A stretch of DNA of 64,000 nt from an uncultured Phycisphaerales bacterium (lineage in GTDB: Bacteria; Planctomycetota; Phycisphaerae; Sedimentisphaerales; Anaerobacaceae), in contig OY970359.1 in NCBI GenBank assembly GCA_963718665.1, positions 544,001-608,000 on the forward strand, read 5' to 3'. The position numbers were made by a program, and so were the translations under genes. Position 1 is the first letter of the stretch; every line of letters starts with the position of its first letter. The notes under the pieces are model-generated. The model saw only the letters and a program-made list of their open reading frames with translations, made no database searches and was not told where the DNA came from. Below are positions 6,193 through 20,328 of this stretch, piece by piece.

Positions 6193-9100
6193 CTACGGTG
6201 GCCCCCACATCGTAGGATCGTTTATCCGTCGTATTTCTCTAAATACATCTATAGGATCTAGGGGTGTTATAGGGATTGAAAGCTGCAAGCGATCCAAATC
6301 ATTTTCCGATATACTATCTTGGGGACCGACCGAATCCGCCTTCACCAGTGGCTGATCACGAAACGTTAGCAACTCGTTGTATTGGTCAATATCCTTTTGA
6401 CTGGTATAAACAGCACTAGGGTATACGTATGATAAAGCTTGTAAGATGCTTTCTGTCATTCGTTCCATTCTGCTGTAGGCACCATTGGTGAGAGAGTCCC
6501 AGTAAATTCTGTCTATTTCTTCCTGTTCTCTTTCTCTTACCAACCAATCAGATATCCAGTCTCCGACAGTACATAAACCTAATGGGTCGATTTCATTAAC
6601 CGGATTATTCAGGCAATAAAGATACAAATTTGGTCCATCGGACATACCGGTGGGGTCCTGGGTAATGAAACGGCCAACTTCGGGGTCATAGTATCTTGCA
6701 CCGAAGTAAACCAATCCTGACGCGTCGAGCTCTTTGGTTAAGAATTGGTGCGAATTATCGGCCGAGCCGGTTTGAGCAACAATATTTCCAAAGGCATCGT
6801 AGCTATAACTTTGTGCAATTGCGCCGGAGGAGTCAGTCAAGTTTACCACGCTTCCCAAGCCATCGTAATGGTAATACTGCGAAGCGGACTGCTCACTAAT
6901 AATCCCGCCGATTCCGCCCGCCGCATAGGGATTGCGCAGGTAACTGGCGGTAGTTGTGCCGGCTGCATTGCGCTCCAAAATCACGTTAAGACCCTCGTAA
7001 AGATAATTTGTGGTTGATGAACCACTTTCAACTGAGATTCTTTTCCCTTCGCCGTCGTATCCGTAAGTTTCGCTGACGTCGGTAGAAGTAAATTGAACAA
7101 GATGATTTCTTGAGTCATAAGTTAAATTTGCGGTCTCGTCTCCCTGCTGCTTCTCAACCAGGTTGCCGTTTTTATCGTAAGTATAGATTATTTGTTCTTC
7201 GCCGGTAATCTGCTCATCAGTAAGCTGGTTTAAGGCGTTATACGAATAATTATGCGTGATTCCATCTTTAATCATCTGTGTGCGGTTACCTGCAGGGTCA
7301 TAAGCATAGCTAATCTGATAAGAATCAGCCGCAGAAGTTTTGCGCTCCTCAGTTAATTCTCCCTTGGCATCATAAGTATAATCAATTTCCCCATCCAGCG
7401 TTGTAACACTGGTTCGCAGACCTCTTATGTCATAGATATAGCTAAATTCAGCGAGTTTCGTAAAAGGTCTTTTTGCCTGCTGTTGAGTAAGTTTAGTCAG
7501 GCGGTTCATACTATCATAGGTATAAACTGCGTTTATCTTGTTTGGATAAGCCAATTTCACCAAATTGCCCAGCTTGTCATAAGTGTAGCTGGTGACTTTT
7601 TTCTGGGAGTCGGTGAGAGAAATTAAGCGGTTTAAGGCATCATATTTGTATTTAGTGATTTTTCCGTCGGGGTCAGTCAAGGTCAGGCGGTTGCCAGCTT
7701 TATCATAGGCATAGCTTACATTATCATTTGCTGCCGGGCCATCAACTTTAATCAGCCGTCCGAGTTTATCATAAGCATAACCGGTGGTCCCTTGCGCATC
7801 AGTCATTGAGATTCGCCTGCCCAGGGAGTCGTAAGCATAACTAACCTCTGAATCAGGATAAATAATTTCAATCAGGCGATTAAGGTTGTCGTATTGATAA
7901 GTGGTAGTTTGTCCTTTGGCATCAACTGAAGCAATACGGTTTCCTGCGGCATCATACTGGTATTGCACTTCATTACCCAAAGCGTCGGTTCGCGAGATTA
8001 AACGATTGAGGCTGTCGTATTCATAAGAAGTCCGGTTATTATTCTGGTCAGTTACAGAAATTAAATTCCCTTCTGTATCGTAAGCATAGTTAATCACATG
8101 GCCTGAAGCATCAGTTGTGGAAGTTACTCGATGGTCCTGGTCATAAGTATAGTAAGTGGTGTTGGCATTAGCATCAGTTACGGAAATTCGATTACCTGCT
8201 TCATCATAGGCATAGCTTACTGAAGACCCATCGGGATAGGTGACTTGGGTAAGCTTATTCAGCTCATCGTAATCAAAATTTGTAATATTATTTTTTGCGT
8301 CTTTGACTTGCGTCAAGTTTCCTACACCGTCGTAAGTAAAAAGTGTAATTCCTTTTGCAGCATCACTCTTGAGGGATAGGTTGCCTTGAGAATCATAGCC
8401 AAAAAGAGTTTTCTTGCCTAATTGGTTGGTTGCACTTATTGGCTGGCCGTAAATATTGTATTTATAGGAAACTGAACCGGCGAGAGCATCTACAGTTTTG
8501 GTAAGATTACCATACTTATCATAGGTATTAGTGGTAATATTGCCCTGCGCATCAGTAAAGGTTTGCAATAAGTTAAAGTTTGCCTCGTAATTAAATGAAG
8601 TAAGATTACCCTTGGGGTCGGTAACCCCGGTCAAATTGCCTTTCGCATCGTATTCCATGCTGGTTGTGCGGCCCAATTCATCGGTACGGGAGGTAAGATT
8701 TAAGTTACTATCCCATGTTGAGAGGATTTGGCCGCCTTGAGGATTGACTACTTTGGTGATTAGATAATCACTGTTATAGTAATGCACTGTCTGGTTGCCT
8801 CTGGAATCGGTAATTGTGGTCACGCTGTCAGCAGTATCAAAACTTAAGCTTGTGTAATTATTGTTGCCCTCGCCCGTAGAAGATGTGCAGCGGCCTGAGT
8901 TGTCAAAAGTAAAATATACCGAATCTCCCCTTGGATTGGTCTTCCTGGTGAGTTTGTGATTTGAGTCGTACTGATAAGTGGTTGAATTGCCCTTGGGGTC
9001 GATAACGCTGGCTAAGTTGCCGGAAGAATCGTATGTATAATCATAATTTCTTCCTACCGGGTCGGTTATCTGGGTTAGCTGGTTTGAATCGTTATAGCTT

Positions 9101-10173
9101 AAATTAATTACGCGTCCTGCGGTATCGGTAATTTGAGTGAGGTTATTCTTAGCGTTATAACTAAATGAAATAACGTTGCTATTGCGGTCTTTTATTTGCG
9201 TAAGCTTCCCGGAAAGATCAAAAATATATTGTTTACCATCTTTCTTGCGCCAGCTATAGTTAGTCGAGGCCTTGGTTAAGGTGGAATATTCACCTCGCTG
9301 GGCAGTATATGTGCCGTCTAAATTATCAGCAAATAAATAACCCTTTGCCTGCTCATCTTTTATTTTGACGAAATTAGCGTCGCCAAAACCATCATCCATT
9401 TCTAAATAAACATTATAACTATGCGTCCATCCAAAACCCAAAGGCTCTTCCGTTTCTTCCTGACTGTTATACGTGCGGACAAATTCAAATTTCAGGCCCC
9501 GCCCGGGTATAGTTAAGTCGGGGGTGATAACATACATATTGCCGGTTACGGAGTTTATAGGGTCGCCGACGGACGGATTTGGGGATTCCCCATTCGTGGC
9601 ATCAATAGGAGGATCTGGCGGCTCCGGCGAAGGTGTTGGAAAGTGTATCATCGTGATTGTAAATACACCAGCATTTTGCCCTATGAATGTTGCATACGAA
9701 TTAAGCTCCGTGTCTGTATCACTTGATGAGTAATTATCCTGAAAAGTACCTGATATTGTCTTATTTAAAACTGTGCCGACAAAATTACTAACTTCTGTGG
9801 CCGTTCCGCTCCCTTCCGAATCATTGTAATTGCTGGTATATGTGGTTGTAAAAGTTATCGAATTACCAGTTACCTTCCCTGTTAAAGTTGCACTCGTCGT
9901 TCCAGAACTATCGCTAGTATTAGAACCGCCGCTGAGAGTCCCATCGGGAGCTTGGTTTATCGTAAAATTATCATTAGGAAAATCAGGAAACGCAACATCA
10001 CGACTACTTGTATTCTGAGTTCCATCGGAAAGTGTCAATGTGACAGTTTCTGTCAGGTTTATGGTGGAAGGCGTAATAGTTGTATCCCAAACTCCCGATA
10101 CATCCGCATTCGTGGCAAAGGCAAAATTACTATTGCATAAGCAAAACAAAACTACTAATAAAATCCTTCTCAT
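6193..10173 (-). CDS. RHS/YD-repeat protein with signal peptide, DUF6531-like region, RHS core and ~120-aa C-terminal tip
   Basis: Many YxYD repeats; GDPINSVTGN; RYYDPEVGRFITQDP...NNPVNEIDPLGL core end. Confidence 0.93.
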   Translation of the reverse strand: MRRILLVVLFCLCNSNFAFATNADVSGVWDTTITPSTINLTETVTLTLSDGTQNTSSRDVAFPDFPNDNFTINQAPDGTLSGGSNTSDSSGTTSATLTGKVTGNSITFTTTYTSNYNDSEGSGTATEVSNFVGTVLNKTISGTFQDNYSSSDTDTELNSYATFIGQNAGVFTITMIHFPTPSPEPPDPPIDATNGESPNPSVGDPINSVTGNMYVITPDLTIPGRGLKFEFVRTYNSQEETEEPLGFGWTHSYNVYLEMDDGFGDANFVKIKDEQAKGYLFADNLDGTYTAQRGEYSTLTKASTNYSWRKKDGKQYIFDLSGKLTQIKDRNSNVISFSYNAKNNLTQITDTAGRVINLSYNDSNQLTQITDPVGRNYDYTYDSSGNLASVIDPKGNSTTYQYDSNHKLTRKTNPRGDSVYFTFDNSGRCTSSTGEGNNNYTSLSFDTADSVTTITDSRGNQTVHYYNSDYLITKVVNPQGGQILSTWDSNLNLTSRTDELGRTTSMEYDAKGNLTGVTDPKGNLTSFNYEANFNLLQTFTDAQGNITTNTYDKYGNLTKTVDALAGSVSYKYNIYGQPISATNQLGKKTLFGYDSQGNLSLKSDAAKGITLFTYDGVGNLTQVKDAKNNITNFDYDELNKLTQVTYPDGSSVSYAYDEAGNRISVTDANANTTYYTYDQDHRVTSTTDASGHVINYAYDTEGNLISVTDQNNNRTSYEYDSLNRLISRTDALGNEVQYQYDAAGNRIASVDAKGQTTTYQYDNLNRLIEIIYPDSEVSYAYDSLGRRISMTDAQGTTGYAYDKLGRLIKVDGPAANDNVSYAYDKAGNRLTLTDPDGKITKYKYDALNRLISLTDSQKKVTSYTYDKLGNLVKLAYPNKINAVYTYDSMNRLTKLTQQQAKRPFTKLAEFSYIYDIRGLRTSVTTLDGEIDYTYDAKGELTEERKTSAADSYQISYAYDPAGNRTQMIKDGITHNYSYNALNQLTDEQITGEEQIIYTYDKNGNLVEKQQGDETANLTYDSRNHLVQFTSTDVSETYGYDGEGKRISVESGSSTTNYLYEGLNVILERNAAGTTTASYLRNPYAAGGIGGIISEQSASQYYHYDGLGSVVNLTDSSGAIAQSYSYDAFGNIVAQTGSADNSHQFLTKELDASGLVYFGARYYDPEVGRFITQDPTGMSDGPNLYLYCLNNPVNEIDPLGLCTVGDWISDWLVREREQEEIDRIYWDSLTNGAYSRMERMTESILQALSYVYPSAVYTSQKDIDQYNELLTFRDQPLVKADSVGPQDSISENDLDRLQLSIPITPLDPIDVFREIRRINDPTMWGPP

Positions 10174-16094: not shown

Positions 16095-16273
16095 AATTCG
16101 ACTCCTTTCAGGCAATGCACCCATGAAGATAAGATTATTTCGCTAATCCTTCAATAGTATTTGTCTTAATTGCTATTTTACCTATGAATAACAGGTCACG
16201 GCAACAAGTAAACTTTAAGTGAGAAAACAAAAGTGGCGAAAATGAACAGCCGAGTATAATATATGGGTATTAT

Positions 16274-16360
16274 GGAGCAGTGGCTGAGCGGCTGAAAGCG
16301 ACGGTCTTGAAAACCGTTATACCGTTTACGGTATCGGGGGTTCGAATCCCTCCTGCTCCG
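16274..16360 (+). tRNA. tRNA-Ser(UGA)
   Basis: GGAGCAG/CTGCTCC acceptor, CTTGAAA loop, long variable arm, GTTCGAATC. Confidence 0.95.
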
Positions 16361-16377
16361 TTACCTTTCTGCCATAT

Positions 16378-16413
16378 CGTCTTGAAGGCATTAAAACCAA
16401 TGCCTTCAAGACG
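16378..16413. repeat. Perfect 15-bp inverted repeat just inside island left end (possible terminator)
   Basis: CGTCTTGAAGGCATT-AAAACC-AATGCCTTCAAGACG. Confidence 0.7.
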
Positions 16414-16550
16414 TTCAAGGCTGTTTGAAAGCACTATTAAGATTTTACAGGAAACAAATCCCCCCAAAGACAATTCAGACACTTAATCTAACCGGTTTGT
16501 GCCTTGGCCTTATAGAATGTTAAAGCTTTTCCCCCGACACTGTGAACTGA

Positions 16551-16697
16551 TTAAGACTTAATGGTCTTGCGTTTAGTCTGCCCCGCTTTCTTGGACATCA
16601 ACTGCAACCAAAGTATCTCCGCGAGTCGTCGGGCCGCCTCTTTTAACATTCGATCCTGGTTGGAATAGATTTGTTTTTCAAGCCGATTATGAGCCAT
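16551..16697 (-). CDS. Small hypothetical protein (48 aa)
   Basis: Manual translation MAHNRLEKQIYSNQDRMLKEAARRLAEILWLQLMSKKAGQTKRKTIKS; below ORF-track cut-off; RBS-like sequence is distant. Confidence 0.35.
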   Translation of the reverse strand: MAHNRLEKQIYSNQDRMLKEAARRLAEILWLQLMSKKAGQTKRKTIKS

Positions 16698-16841
16698 GAC
16701 AATATTTTTCTTGTTTGTTTTCCTTTCAGCTTATCACGCTAGAGATATGTGCCAAGGGGGGAAAATTGACTACTTTAGCAAAAACGCCCTGGGTAGTTTT
16801 TAATATTTATAAACTTTTTATCCACCTATCGAAATAATCTA

Positions 16842-16871
16842 TTGACAAATGCAACTCTGTTGCATTATCAT
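16842..16871 (+). promoter_or_regulatory. Sigma70 promoter with palindromic operator (candidate Zur box)
   Basis: TTGACA 16842, TATCAT 16866; AATGCAAC-TCT-GTTGCATT 16848-16866 between them. Confidence 0.7.
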
Positions 16872-16877
16872 AAAGAC

Positions 16878-17312
16878 ATGAATAGTTTAGAAAATACCTT
16901 ATTGCAATTGAAAAACAAGGGATACAGATTTAGCTTTGTGCGTAATTTTATTTTGAGTTCGCTTGATAGAAACAAGAGACCTCTTTCGGTTTCTAATTTT
17001 CAAAAACTGGCTAAGGCAAAAAAGTTGTCTGCGAACAAGACCACAATATACCGCGAACTCAACTCCCTAAAGAAAGAAGGAATAATTTTAGAGATGCAAC
17101 TAAGAGACAATAAAAGGTGGTACGAATTAGCCGTAAGAGAGCATCACCACCATATTGTCTGTATAAAATGCGATAAAGTGGAAGATTTTACCGGATGTGA
17201 TTCTAAAAAACTAATAAATAAAGCATTAACACAAGCACCCGATTTCGCAGAAATCACAAATCACACGGTTGATTTTTGGGGGTTGTGCAAAACGTGCGCT
17301 AAAAAAACATGA
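16878..17312 (+). CDS. zur: Fur-family regulator, probably Zur
   Basis: TTIYREL, HHHHIVCIKC, CKTC; heads zinc ABC operon; start placed at ATG 16878 because the ORF-track TTG is the -35 box. Confidence 0.85.
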   Translation: MNSLENTLLQLKNKGYRFSFVRNFILSSLDRNKRPLSVSNFQKLAKAKKLSANKTTIYRELNSLKKEGIILEMQLRDNKRWYELAVREHHHHIVCIKCDKVEDFTGCDSKKLINKALTQAPDFAEITNHTVDFWGLCKTCAKKT

Positions 17313-18226
17313 ATAAAAAGGCTATTTATTTTGTTCTCGGTTTTTTGTTTGTGGGAGTTTTAACTCTTATTGTTAATAACATCTATAAACCAACAACCCA
17401 ATCAAACAAACCTCAGGTTACAGCGAGTTTTTATCCTCTTTACTTTTTCTCCCAGCAAATTGCAGGAGATAAGGCAGATGTAATAAACATAACGCCTGCC
17501 GGAGCTGAACCTCACGATTATGAACCAACGGCACAAGACATTGCTCAAATAGAAAATAGCAAAATGCTTGTCTTAAATGGCGGTGGGTTGGAGGCTTGGG
17601 GAAACAATATAAAACAAAATCTTAATCCTAAAAATACTATCGTTGTAACGGCTGGTGAGGGATTAACAAACCAACAGGTAATGGAAAACGGACAAAATAT
17701 AATAGACCCGCATATTTGGCAAAGTCCTCCATTAGCCAAACAAATGGTTGATAAAATTACTCAAGGTTTTATACAAATTGACCCAACCAATAAAGCTTAT
17801 TATCAAGCAAACTCCGATGCATTAAAAGTCCGATTAGATAACTTGGATAAAGAATACAGACGAGGATTAAGCGATTGTTTAGAAAAAAGCATTATTACAT
17901 CTCACGCCGCTTTTGGATATTTGGCTACTACTTACGGCTTAAATCAAGTGTCTATCGCTGGGTTGTCGCCAGACGCCGAACCCTCCCCGCAACAATTAGC
18001 TGATATTGTAAAATTTGCTAAAACCAATAACGTAAAATACATATTTTTTGAAAGTTTGGTAAGCCCAAAATTATCAGATACCATAGCAACCGAAGTAGGA
18101 GCAAAAACTCTTGTGTTAAATCCGATTGAAGGATTGACCAATGAAGAAATATCTCAAGGTAAGAATTATTTTACAGAAATGCAAAACAATTTAGCCAATT
18201 TGAAAATAGCACTACAATGCAAGTAG
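17309..18226 (+). CDS. znuA: Zn/Mn ABC transporter substrate-binding protein
   Basis: EPHDYEP, DPHIW, SHAAFGY motifs. Confidence 0.9.
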   Translation: MNKKAIYFVLGFLFVGVLTLIVNNIYKPTTQSNKPQVTASFYPLYFFSQQIAGDKADVINITPAGAEPHDYEPTAQDIAQIENSKMLVLNGGGLEAWGNNIKQNLNPKNTIVVTAGEGLTNQQVMENGQNIIDPHIWQSPPLAKQMVDKITQGFIQIDPTNKAYYQANSDALKVRLDNLDKEYRRGLSDCLEKSIITSHAAFGYLATTYGLNQVSIAGLSPDAEPSPQQLADIVKFAKTNNVKYIFFESLVSPKLSDTIATEVGAKTLVLNPIEGLTNEEISQGKNYFTEMQNNLANLKIALQCK

Positions 18227-18984
18227 ACCACACAAAAAATATAATTGAGATTAAGGACGTATGTTTCAGTTATGGGAATGAGGAGGTCTTAAAAGCCATT
18301 ACTCTTAATATACATAAGGGCGATTATTTAGGAATAGTCGGCTCTAACGGAGCGGGCAAAACAACGCTTCTTAAGTTAATTTTGGGGCTGTTACCTTTAT
18401 GTTGTGGGTCAGTAAAATTATTCGGGCAAGACATAAAACAATTCAAGGATTGGTCAAGGATTGGTTATGTCCCGCAAAAAGCCACTAATTTTGATGTAAA
18501 TTTTCCTGCTACAGTCAAAGAGGTTGTGGCAATGGCGAGATTTTCAAAAAGAGGATTGCTTCACCGAACTACAAAAGAAGATGAAGAAATAATAGGAAAA
18601 TCTTTGAGGCAGGTTGATATGTGGGACTATAAAAACCGTTTAATAGGCGACTTGTCTGGCGGTCAGCAACAGAGAGTTTTTATTGCTCGGGCTTTGGCAG
18701 GACAACCAGAGGTTATCTTTTTAGATGAACCAACTACTGGCGTTGATAAAAAATACCAAGATGACTTTTATAATATCTTGAGAGGATTAAATAAAGATTT
18801 GGATTTAACATTAGTTCTCGTAACCCACGACATTGAAAGGATAACCAAAGAAGCAATGCACATTGCCTGCGTTGACCATACTTTAGTCTGTCATACTTCG
18901 CCAGAGGAATTCTTAAAAGAAGGCGAATTATTAAACATTTCGGGTCAAAGAGTTAAAATTATTGTTCCTCATCGTCACGCTTAA
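18217..18984 (+). CDS. znuC: Metal ABC transporter ATPase
   Basis: GSNGAGKTT, GYVPQ, LSGGQQQR, LDEPT. Confidence 0.92.
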   Translation: MQVDHTKNIIEIKDVCFSYGNEEVLKAITLNIHKGDYLGIVGSNGAGKTTLLKLILGLLPLCCGSVKLFGQDIKQFKDWSRIGYVPQKATNFDVNFPATVKEVVAMARFSKRGLLHRTTKEDEEIIGKSLRQVDMWDYKNRLIGDLSGGQQQRVFIARALAGQPEVIFLDEPTTGVDKKYQDDFYNILRGLNKDLDLTLVLVTHDIERITKEAMHIACVDHTLVCHTSPEEFLKEGELLNISGQRVKIIVPHRHA

Positions 18985-18989
18985 AATGT

Positions 18990-19790
18990 ATGTATTTAGA
19001 TATTTTTCAATATAGTTTTATTATAAGGGGGGTAGAAGCTGGGATTATAGTCGCCATTATTGCCCCGCTCATTGGTATTTTTTTAGTTTTAAGGCGCTAC
19101 TCCTTAATAGCCGATACACTTGCTCACGTATCACTTGCGGGCATAGCGATAGGGCTTCTATTGGGCATAAACCCTGTTTTAACAGCTCTTGGAACTGCTG
19201 TTGTTGCCTCTCTGGGTATTGAGAAATTGAGGATTTCAAAAAGGGTATACGGCGAGTCTGCTTTGGCTCTTTTTGTATCTGGCAGTTTGGCTTTAGCTGT
19301 TGTTATTTTAAGTTTGGCTCACGGCTTTAACGCCAACCTTTTCAATTATCTGTTCGGGAGCATTGTTACTGTTACGATGAGCGACGTCTATACAATCGCG
19401 ATTCTAGCAATTGTGGTTATAGCAATTCTTCTGTCATTTTATAAAGAGCTTGTTTATGTCACCTTTGACGAAGATGCGGCAAAGGTAAGTGGCATACCAA
19501 CAAAATTGATTAACACGGTTCTTATTATTCTTGCGGCCATAACAGTTTCTTTGTCTATTCCAATCGTGGGGGTTTTACTAATCGCCGCACTAATTGTTGT
19601 TCCGGTAGTTTCTGCTTTGCAGCTAAGAAAAAGTTTTATTAAAACCATTTTATATGCAGAGATTATTTCTCTTTTTTCTGTTATCTCTGGCATATTTGCA
19701 TCTTTTTACTTAAATCTATCTACGGGCGGAACAATAGTTTTAATTATGCTTGCCATATTTATTTCAATTTTTACGGCAAAACGCCTATAA
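18990..19790 (+). CDS. znuB: Metal ABC transporter permease
   Basis: DTLAHVSLAG, YLFGSI, TFDED; multiple TM helices. Confidence 0.92.
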   Translation: MYLDIFQYSFIIRGVEAGIIVAIIAPLIGIFLVLRRYSLIADTLAHVSLAGIAIGLLLGINPVLTALGTAVVASLGIEKLRISKRVYGESALALFVSGSLALAVVILSLAHGFNANLFNYLFGSIVTVTMSDVYTIAILAIVVIAILLSFYKELVYVTFDEDAAKVSGIPTKLINTVLIILAAITVSLSIPIVGVLLIAALIVVPVVSALQLRKSFIKTILYAEIISLFSVISGIFASFYLNLSTGGTIVLIMLAIFISIFTAKRL

Positions 19791-19913
19791 ATCATTTCAC
19801 CGTGAAAAGCAAACGGAATTTTAAAATTAATTACAAATCTTTGAGTGAAAAAATGAATCAGAAAATTCCGTATCAGCCTATCAAAACTTGGCTCGAATCT
19901 AAAGATTTCAAAG

Positions 19914-20177
19914 TTGCCATTAGACGAACAAATTTCAAAACTCCAGGCAGAAATCAGTTACCTAAAGGTTCAATACGCTTCAAGCGATGAAGTCCTTAAT
20001 GAAGCTCGCGACCTCTATTCCCGTTGGCCAAACCTTGATCGTGCGGAAAAAAGGCAGATTATTGAGAACATAACTGAAAAAGTCGTTGTTGGCGAAAAAG
20101 ATATAACCATCAATCTATGCTATCTCCCTTTCTTTTCCGAAATGATGGCAGCTAAGACACGGCACGTTCCTGCTCCG
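19914..20177 (+). pseudogene. C-terminal remnant of a large serine recombinase
   Basis: Coiled coil then EARDLYSRWPNLDRAEKRQIIENITEKVVVGEKDITINLCYLP, resembling LSR tails; no catalytic N-terminus; reads into attR. Confidence 0.6.
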
Positions 20178-20328
20178 ATCTTCTCATGGCGATACGAAAG
20201 ACACGGCCGTTCTTCTCACGGCGATATGAAAAACACGTCCGTTTTGAGAATAAAAAGCAAACCTTAACGACCTGTGTTAGAATATAATCAATATGTTTTG
20301 ATTCAAAAACAAAAGGAAAGGACCGGTT

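Follow-up and report, generated by a model that had tools for sequence, protein, structure and literature searches.

A decayed large serine recombinase island at a tRNA-Ser gene of a planctomycete, with a zinc operon of Patescibacteria type

Within a 64,000-nucleotide stretch of contig OY970359.1 (assembly GCA_963718665.1, positions 544,001 to 608,000, from an uncultured Phycisphaerales bacterium), hereafter the window, a small island runs from the 3′ end of a tRNA-Ser(TGA) gene at 16351 to a second copy of that end closing at 20177. The host is assigned to the Sedimentisphaerales, the name borne by trigger-factor proteins that share a 90% cluster with its own. It is a real, immobilised island of a large serine recombinase (LSR): its attachment (att) sites have the 2-bp crossover and inverted arms of an LSR integrative element, the stump of an LSR gene ends at one of them, and both junctions recur around an intact element in a congener. 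Taken as a whole, the island is best explained, at a probability of roughly 0.7, as a decayed LSR element at tRNA-Ser that holds a zinc operon, zur-znuACB, of Patescibacteria type. An initial annotation, made from the letters alone, had proposed the island, its recombinase type and its zinc cargo; the comM ancestry, the reading frame across the att site and the Patescibacteria source described below were missing from it, and the rest is partly supported.

The 10-bp core TCCTGCTCCG lies at 16351–16360, where it comprises the two final bases of the T stem, the 3′ strand of the acceptor stem and the discriminator base of the tRNA, and again at 20168–20177, as the initial annotation had placed it; identity extends no further on either side. 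With the ends joined in silico, the motifs ATGGCAG (20145–51) and CTGCCAT (16369–75) each lie 16 nt from the first dinucleotide of the core, TC. Mirror symmetry peaks about this TC, the centre claimed from the start, with 18/35 matching positions against at most 12 for 12 other centres tried, and a 7-nt mirrored run arises in 1.9% of 20,000 random flank pairs. The core 10-mer occurs 11 times genome-wide, with 0.008 copies expected per 4 kb, and by itself it is weak evidence because congeners often duplicate the tRNA-Ser end for other reasons. What decides the matter is comparative: in genome G015, of the same genus, the same attL arm and a nearly identical attR lie 19.2 kb apart around an intact element, which confirms the att sites. 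The proposed attL/attR pair with its crossover at TC thus stands, on these junctions and on the comM register described below. The integrase-coded arm left of attR (20153–20169) resembles the end of a host repeat unit (20198–20213) more than the G015 arm does, by chance or by local conversion.

The G015 element encodes a 501-aa LSR that ends at attR and has resolvase (PF00239) and recombinase (PF07508) domains, together with two coupling-protein-like ATPases, a second LSR, a RuvC-like protein, a DUF2958 protein and restriction genes. The recombinase-like remnant in the window corresponds to residues ~410–490 of such a ~500-aa LSR. As a query it matched 37 proteins of 76 candidates, most with PF00239 and PF07508 and the best at 80–84% identity, so that both its assignment to an LSR and the claim of a mostly deleted integrase hold. 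The codons at its end double as the element-side arm of attR, ATGGCAG included. Similarity to the G015 gene begins abruptly at ~19917 and amounts to 87% DNA identity over 246 nt; with 0.062 nonsynonymous (dN) and 0.52 synonymous (dS) substitutions per site, most of the divergence predates the truncation. No complete integrase and no other copy of the LSR was found elsewhere in the genome. The coupling-protein-like ATPase backbone, present in G015 and in genome G1109, is absent between the window att sites, and no mobility genes are left in the island, in keeping with the earlier description of an immobilised islet. A short tree of C-terminal sequences (49 rows, 94 columns), poorly resolved, groups the stump with G015-like proteins, does not recover the tRNA-targeting clade as one group and leaves an LSR remnant from genome G116 unplaced. 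A phage origin was rejected, as no relative of the LSR occurs in viral contigs.

The integrase gene itself contains the att site, and relatives whose site is unsplit read on through it into a helix-turn-helix (HTH) domain. At four such loci (L168, L178, L181 and L221) the LSR frame continues into XRE-type HTH domains, and a fifth (L217) is unsplit and lacks the HTH. Three of these natural sites (L217, L178 and L221) have the 16-2-16 spacing and the right arm of the window, and genome G300 holds a tRNA-type unsplit site with an HTH. Past the attL crossover of the window, a frame stub beginning PAPLPFCHIVLKALKP stands in the same register as the unsplit sites, and similar stubs follow six congener arms; this supports the reconstructed attP. 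An AlphaFold model of P0067, a natural LSR-HTH protein, was uninformative on the packing of the extension: residues 460–508 had a predicted local distance difference test score (pLDDT) below 50, and the predicted template modelling score (pTM) was 0.38. Two of the elements with unsplit sites (L178 and L181) carry pilin-like genes and open reading frames (ORFs) resembling reverse transcriptases, whose motifs look like those of diversity-generating retroelements. Artificial fusions of integrases to recombination directionality factors switch the direction of the reaction, according to the portion consulted of PMC12286644.

Close LSRs were compared at 80 metagenome loci. In 56 of these the integrase tail meets antisense comM at an invariant CA flanked by variable bases; three lie at tRNA-Ser, two of them near-identical, and one further match is not a junction. 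On the comM gene strand the CA reads TG and opens the codon for the first Cys of NPCPCG. Both sites share an AATCC, after which this TG and the TC of the tRNA line up. Because the two dinucleotides are in register, the crossover position is fixed independently of the symmetry argument. In LSR trees built without the att-encoded tail, with support from the Shimodaira–Hasegawa-like approximate likelihood ratio test (SH-aLRT) only, the tRNA-type LSRs form one clade among comM types (10/134 rows, SH-aLRT 98, including one unsplit-looking row), recovered in a second tree with 12 of 40 chosen rows (SH-aLRT 99). Targets in the larger tree were labelled by the pattern of the protein tail (90 comM, 9 tRNA, 14 unsplit and 21 unclassified), and a single comM-targeting sequence on a long branch serves as the root. 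On this rooting the tRNA-Ser-targeting LSRs are nested among comM-targeting ones, and the lineage appears as one that switched target from comM to the tRNA. The host's own comM is intact, at 509 aa, and holds no insertion. The G116 remnant mentioned above, in another family, also lies at tRNA-Ser with 53% identity; its arm follows the different acceptor-stem base of that host, and it is possibly a second switch to tRNA-Ser.

A search with the arm pattern matched 8 of 201 genomes of the family and gave zero control matches. Among the relatives, G1109 has a complete 29.8-kb element in the opposite orientation, with the integrase abutting the tRNA and reading antisense into it and the far end encoding the HTH extension. 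What distinguishes the two orientations is a 12-bp segment, bounded by CGG and CCG of the palindromic arms, which is inverted in one relative to the other. A swap of whole arms was considered and rejected, since the HTH-coding arm of G1109 is still the far arm and the core alone is inverted. The G015 enzyme and protein P0005, which comes from an element of the opposite orientation, share 93% identity, and P0005 falls among window-type proteins in the tree, implying two flips or more; recombination or template switching between the inverted arms may have caused them. An LSR of 72% identity has comM as its site at locus L051 (G008:C27); it stands in the less common orientation and reads into the 3′ half of that gene.

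The tRNA-Ser locus could be retrieved in 18 of 23 congeners, and six keep the attL arm: at tRNA-Ser itself in G002, G015 and G017, and at a downstream duplicate of the tRNA end in G019, G020 and G022. Empty sites, which the initial annotation had suggested looking for, were found in G020, G014, G005 and run X4, where repeats of the family found beyond attR in the window come immediately after the tRNA gene. In G002 a ~15-kb gas-vesicle gene cluster stands after the attL arm downstream of tRNA-Ser (L038, G002:C48), with no LSR or attR found there; it is possibly another stranded cargo at this site. Small GIY-YIG nuclease genes occur among palindromic repeats right after tRNA-Ser in G020 (L042:18936–19190) and G005 (L014), the former ending in a second copy of the 3′ end of the tRNA, which bears an LSR arm.

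The cargo combines a Fur-family regulator, a metal-binding protein, an ATPase and an ABC-3 permease in one operon, the gene content of Zur-ZnuACB (Table 1), and its most probable role is that of a high-affinity zinc importer repressed by Zur. The best Protein Data Bank matches of ZnuA are Bacillus subtilis YcdH (2o1e) and Streptococcus pneumoniae AdcA (7jj8). The spacer of the putative promoter contains a Zur-box-like palindrome at 16848–16866. Promoter-like sites occur at chance level in the sequence (11 against 11.8), and the best site alone was used; this promoter and its palindrome resemble those upstream of loci L067 and L089 as well as two host palindromes near a native zinc cluster. A 48-aa ORF on the minus strand (16548–16697) was rejected as a part of the island, having no Pfam match, no Atlas match and no counterpart in the retrieved loci.

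By sequence the operon is of the type of the ultra-small Patescibacteria, in a Planctomycete. Among the 80 loci retained from 103 for comparison, the closest ZnuA matches came from Patescibacteria and two Nitrospirota, at 73–75% identity, and a Nomurabacteria locus (L068) matches the whole operon including the regulator, with 74% DNA identity over 2,885 bp, dN of 0.11–0.20 and dS above 1.5. The ZnuA tree places the protein in a clade of 26 rows (support 97), of which 22 are Patescibacteria and 3 Nitrospirota; a wider clade includes 14 rows labelled Gammaproteobacteria or Pseudomonadales, and ZnuA proteins of the host's order group elsewhere. None of 43 genomes of the same family had a ZnuA match at E ≤ 1e-20, and ZnuB matches in five of 23 congeners did not exceed 28% identity. 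The suspicion that the operon is foreign is therefore well founded, in the nesting of ZnuA among Patescibacteria genes and in the Nomurabacteria match. Three Nitrospirota genomes (L070, L091 and L078) carry the same type of znuACB without a match to the regulator, which suggests repeated export of the operon.

The island has a guanine-plus-cytosine (GC) content of 37.2% against 49.2% for the genome, and only 6 of 5,215 equal-sized windows are as low, which bears out the AT-rich look of the cargo. A single short-read contig covers 16696–20185 at a depth of 10.5, with neighbouring pieces at 10–15; the run it came from may be the source sample, and all runs belong to one study. Taken together, the short-read contigs cover the region at comparable depth and run across attL, attR and the junction of znuB with the stump; attL and that junction are also bridged in two other runs. 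Neither a circle nor an empty-site joint was seen among the four contig sets of that study, in which assembly drops rare forms and cannot show absence. At position 19190 all three covering runs have C where the window has T, a synonymous position in znuB and possibly an assembly error. Elsewhere in the window, a stretch of 42% GC (6193–10173, minus strand) encodes a 1,326-aa protein that we take to be an RHS/YD-repeat protein.

Table 1. Features at and around the island, in window coordinates
Feature	Position	Strand	Remarks
tRNA-Ser(TGA)	16273..16361	+	target gene; 3′ end restored by element; CCA not encoded
attL core	16351..16360	+	crossover dinucleotide TC at 16351-52
frame stub continuing the integrase	16352..16486	+	44 codons; HTH domain of relatives gone
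attL element-side arm	16353..16398	+	contains CTGCCAT (16369-75); kept in 6/18 congeners
hairpin	16378..16413		perfect 15 bp, just beyond tRNA-Ser; possible terminator or processing signal
sigma-70-type promoter (putative)	16842..16871	+	TTGACA-18-TATCAT, 11/12 matches
Fur-family regulator, probably Zur	16878..17312	+	144 aa; PF01475; 69% to Nomurabacteria L068
ZnuA/AdcA-type metal-binding protein	17309..18226	+	305 aa; PF01297
ZnuC-type ABC ATPase	18217..18984	+	255 aa; PF00005; 78% to L068
ZnuB-type permease	18990..19790	+	266 aa; PF00950; 83% to L068
3′ stump of LSR gene	19917..20167	+	~82 codons; catalytic and DNA-binding domains deleted
attR core	20168..20177	+	
host-side flank of attR	20175..20245	+	two 32-bp repeats; same family directly 3′ of tRNA at congener empty sites

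We propose that the ancestor was an integrative element like the 19–30 kb ones of the relatives, with an LSR descended from comM-targeting enzymes and with coupling-protein-like ATPases. Its LSR would have recombined attP with attB at the T-stem end of tRNA-Ser, crossing over at TC, and the incoming arm would have restored the acceptor strand of the tRNA. Because attP falls within the final codons of the LSR gene, integration would also have severed the C-terminal extension that unsplit relatives carry. The element would have carried, or later taken up, the Patescibacteria-type zur-znuACB with its own promoter, and subsequent deletions would have removed the backbone and more than 80% of the LSR gene, leaving an element that could not excise unaided.

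Several observations weigh against this history. No retrieved locus has both an LSR of the tRNA-type clade and the zinc operon, and the spacers flanking the operon have no counterpart in the retrieved loci. The LSR was not found in 401 Patescibacteria genomes, in a search run without a positive control; one homologue, P0067, is named from a Patescibacteria genome. None of the four cargo proteins reaches the NCBIfam cut-off for a named Zur/Znu family. Similarity between the tRNA and comM sites is modest, with a rank of 3,692 among 5.2 million positions and fifth among 44 tRNA genes in a model whose right arm rests on a single sequence; mimicry of comM is therefore a plausible route and no more, and the idea that the tRNA site is the genome's best comM mimic was dropped on this ranking. 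The closest relative, G017, keeps the attL arm without attR and does not rejoin at the core. The initial annotation had named a failure of znu-less relatives to rejoin at the repeat as evidence against its reading, and G017 formally shows one. The arm there runs on into a downstream phosphoesterase gene, and as attR was lost in a larger deletion and not by excision, G017 does not count against the att sites. Lastly, the host has a zinc cluster of its own (L252:4940–9826; G000:C1 ~2,586,900–2,591,900), with ZnuB-like and ZnuA-like proteins, a 450-aa protein without a Pfam match, a Fur-family regulator (Zur) and a ZIP transporter.

This native cluster lends weight to the strongest rival, a possibility we take seriously without favouring it, in which the operon arrived recently and is carried neutrally, being silent or duplicating what the host's zinc genes do, and is not a fitness islet. 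The third-position GC of the operon is 0.28–0.37, against 0.63–0.70 in two host genes, and so far below the host that little adjustment has taken place; no match to the operon above 28% identity was found in any of 23 congeners. On the other side, four reading frames and a promoter outlasted deletions that took nearly everything else, and the native ZnuA/ZnuB-like pair has no ATPase gene immediately next to it, the closest one being ~7 kb off beside another permease. The host also bears, near its native cluster, the two palindromes similar to that of the operon, which we take to be Zur-box-like, and both base differences within the operon in reads are synonymous third positions, too few to test.

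We consider it somewhat less probable, and on balance unlikely, that an LSR element came first and decayed, and that the zinc operon entered the dead element later by transformation or illegitimate recombination at a site tolerant of insertions. Such a sequence would fit the absence of any backbone gene beside the operon, the abrupt joint to the stump at ~19917 and the intact comM of the host, as well as the habit of the tRNA-Ser site of gathering unrelated cargo (the gas-vesicle genes of G002) and keeping short scars alone (G017, G019, G020 and G022). Set against it, attL and attR enclose the entire operon, intact relatives hold varied cargo in the same interval, and a coupling-protein-like ATPase of the G015 element has homologues in 79/81 Patescibacteria genomes, at up to 59% identity, with no control phylum searched. 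A chance repeat, a tyrosine-integrase scar or a misassembled Patescibacteria contig is very improbable and largely refuted: a tyrosine integrase does use the same tRNA-Ser in G001, duplicated tRNA-Ser ends are common in the genus and the best-covering run may be the source sample, but the same junctions flank a full LSR in G015, the arms are conserved, depth along the contig is even and junctions are bridged in two further runs.

Beyond the decayed element itself, we speculate, tentatively, that this element family ships working operons from Patescibacteria to unrelated sediment bacteria. The tRNA-Ser branch would then record a switch in the wild from comM to a partly similar T-stem, possibly by way of harmless duplicated tRNA ends downstream, and 12-bp core inversions between the palindromic arms would flip orientation with the read-through from integrase to HTH kept.

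In classical serine integrases such as those of Bxb1, phiC31 and A118, att sites are short and the central dinucleotide sets orientation. The family described here differs in having no relative in viral contigs, an att site inside the integrase gene and natural core-inverted variants. In the excerpt available of PMC13626063, serine integrases mostly target protein-coding genes, and in that of Durrant et al. (PMC10083194) magnesium chelatase/ATP-dependent protease (comM/yifB) targets account for 12.4% of predicted site-specific integrases. Like such comM/yifB elements, the surrounding clade inserts at the first Cys codon of NPCPCG with the same arm spacing and crossover register, whereas the window subclade uses and restores tRNA-Ser(TGA) in a host whose comM is intact. 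The word 'tRNA' is absent from the main text of PMC10083194 as available, and the tRNA-site motif was not found in its eight supplements, which may be incomplete; of six 'tRNA' matches there, the two displayed lie inside protein sequences. A published parallel is found in the Dehalococcoides ssrA islands, where the LSR DsiB targets the 3′ end of the tmRNA gene (McMurdie et al., PMC3146451): as far as the portions available go, these too have the 3′ end of a stable-RNA gene as target, an integrase 3′ end overlapping the att site and metabolic cargo, but they differ in the tmRNA target and in a six-gene module with a small partner recombinase. Those portions make no mention of comM ancestry, an HTH extension or two orientations. 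The operon belongs to the same gene families as ZnuACB/AdcABC importers under Zur; its sequences are Patescibacteria-type, in a Planctomycete, and its metal specificity is putative. LSR islands at the ends of stable-RNA genes are thus already in print with DsiB. New here are the tRNA-type clade within comM LSRs, the orientation flips by core inversion and the Patescibacteria-type cargo; we found no literature report of a comM-to-tRNA switch, a natural att-core inversion or this operon transfer, and published island tables may list such sites.

The zinc operon is itself ordinary. As cargo it gives an example, at gene level, of transfer out of Patescibacteria and into a Planctomycete; what was available of PMC12455944 documents that direction less well than it does exchange among Patescibacteria or into them. 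For the recombinases, a close-knit LSR clade moved from the commonest protein-coding target, comM, to a tRNA, and G015 supplies an intact integrase with both att sites for tool testing. Integrases 93% identical and standing in opposite orientations offer a natural series on how LSR specificity and orientation evolve.

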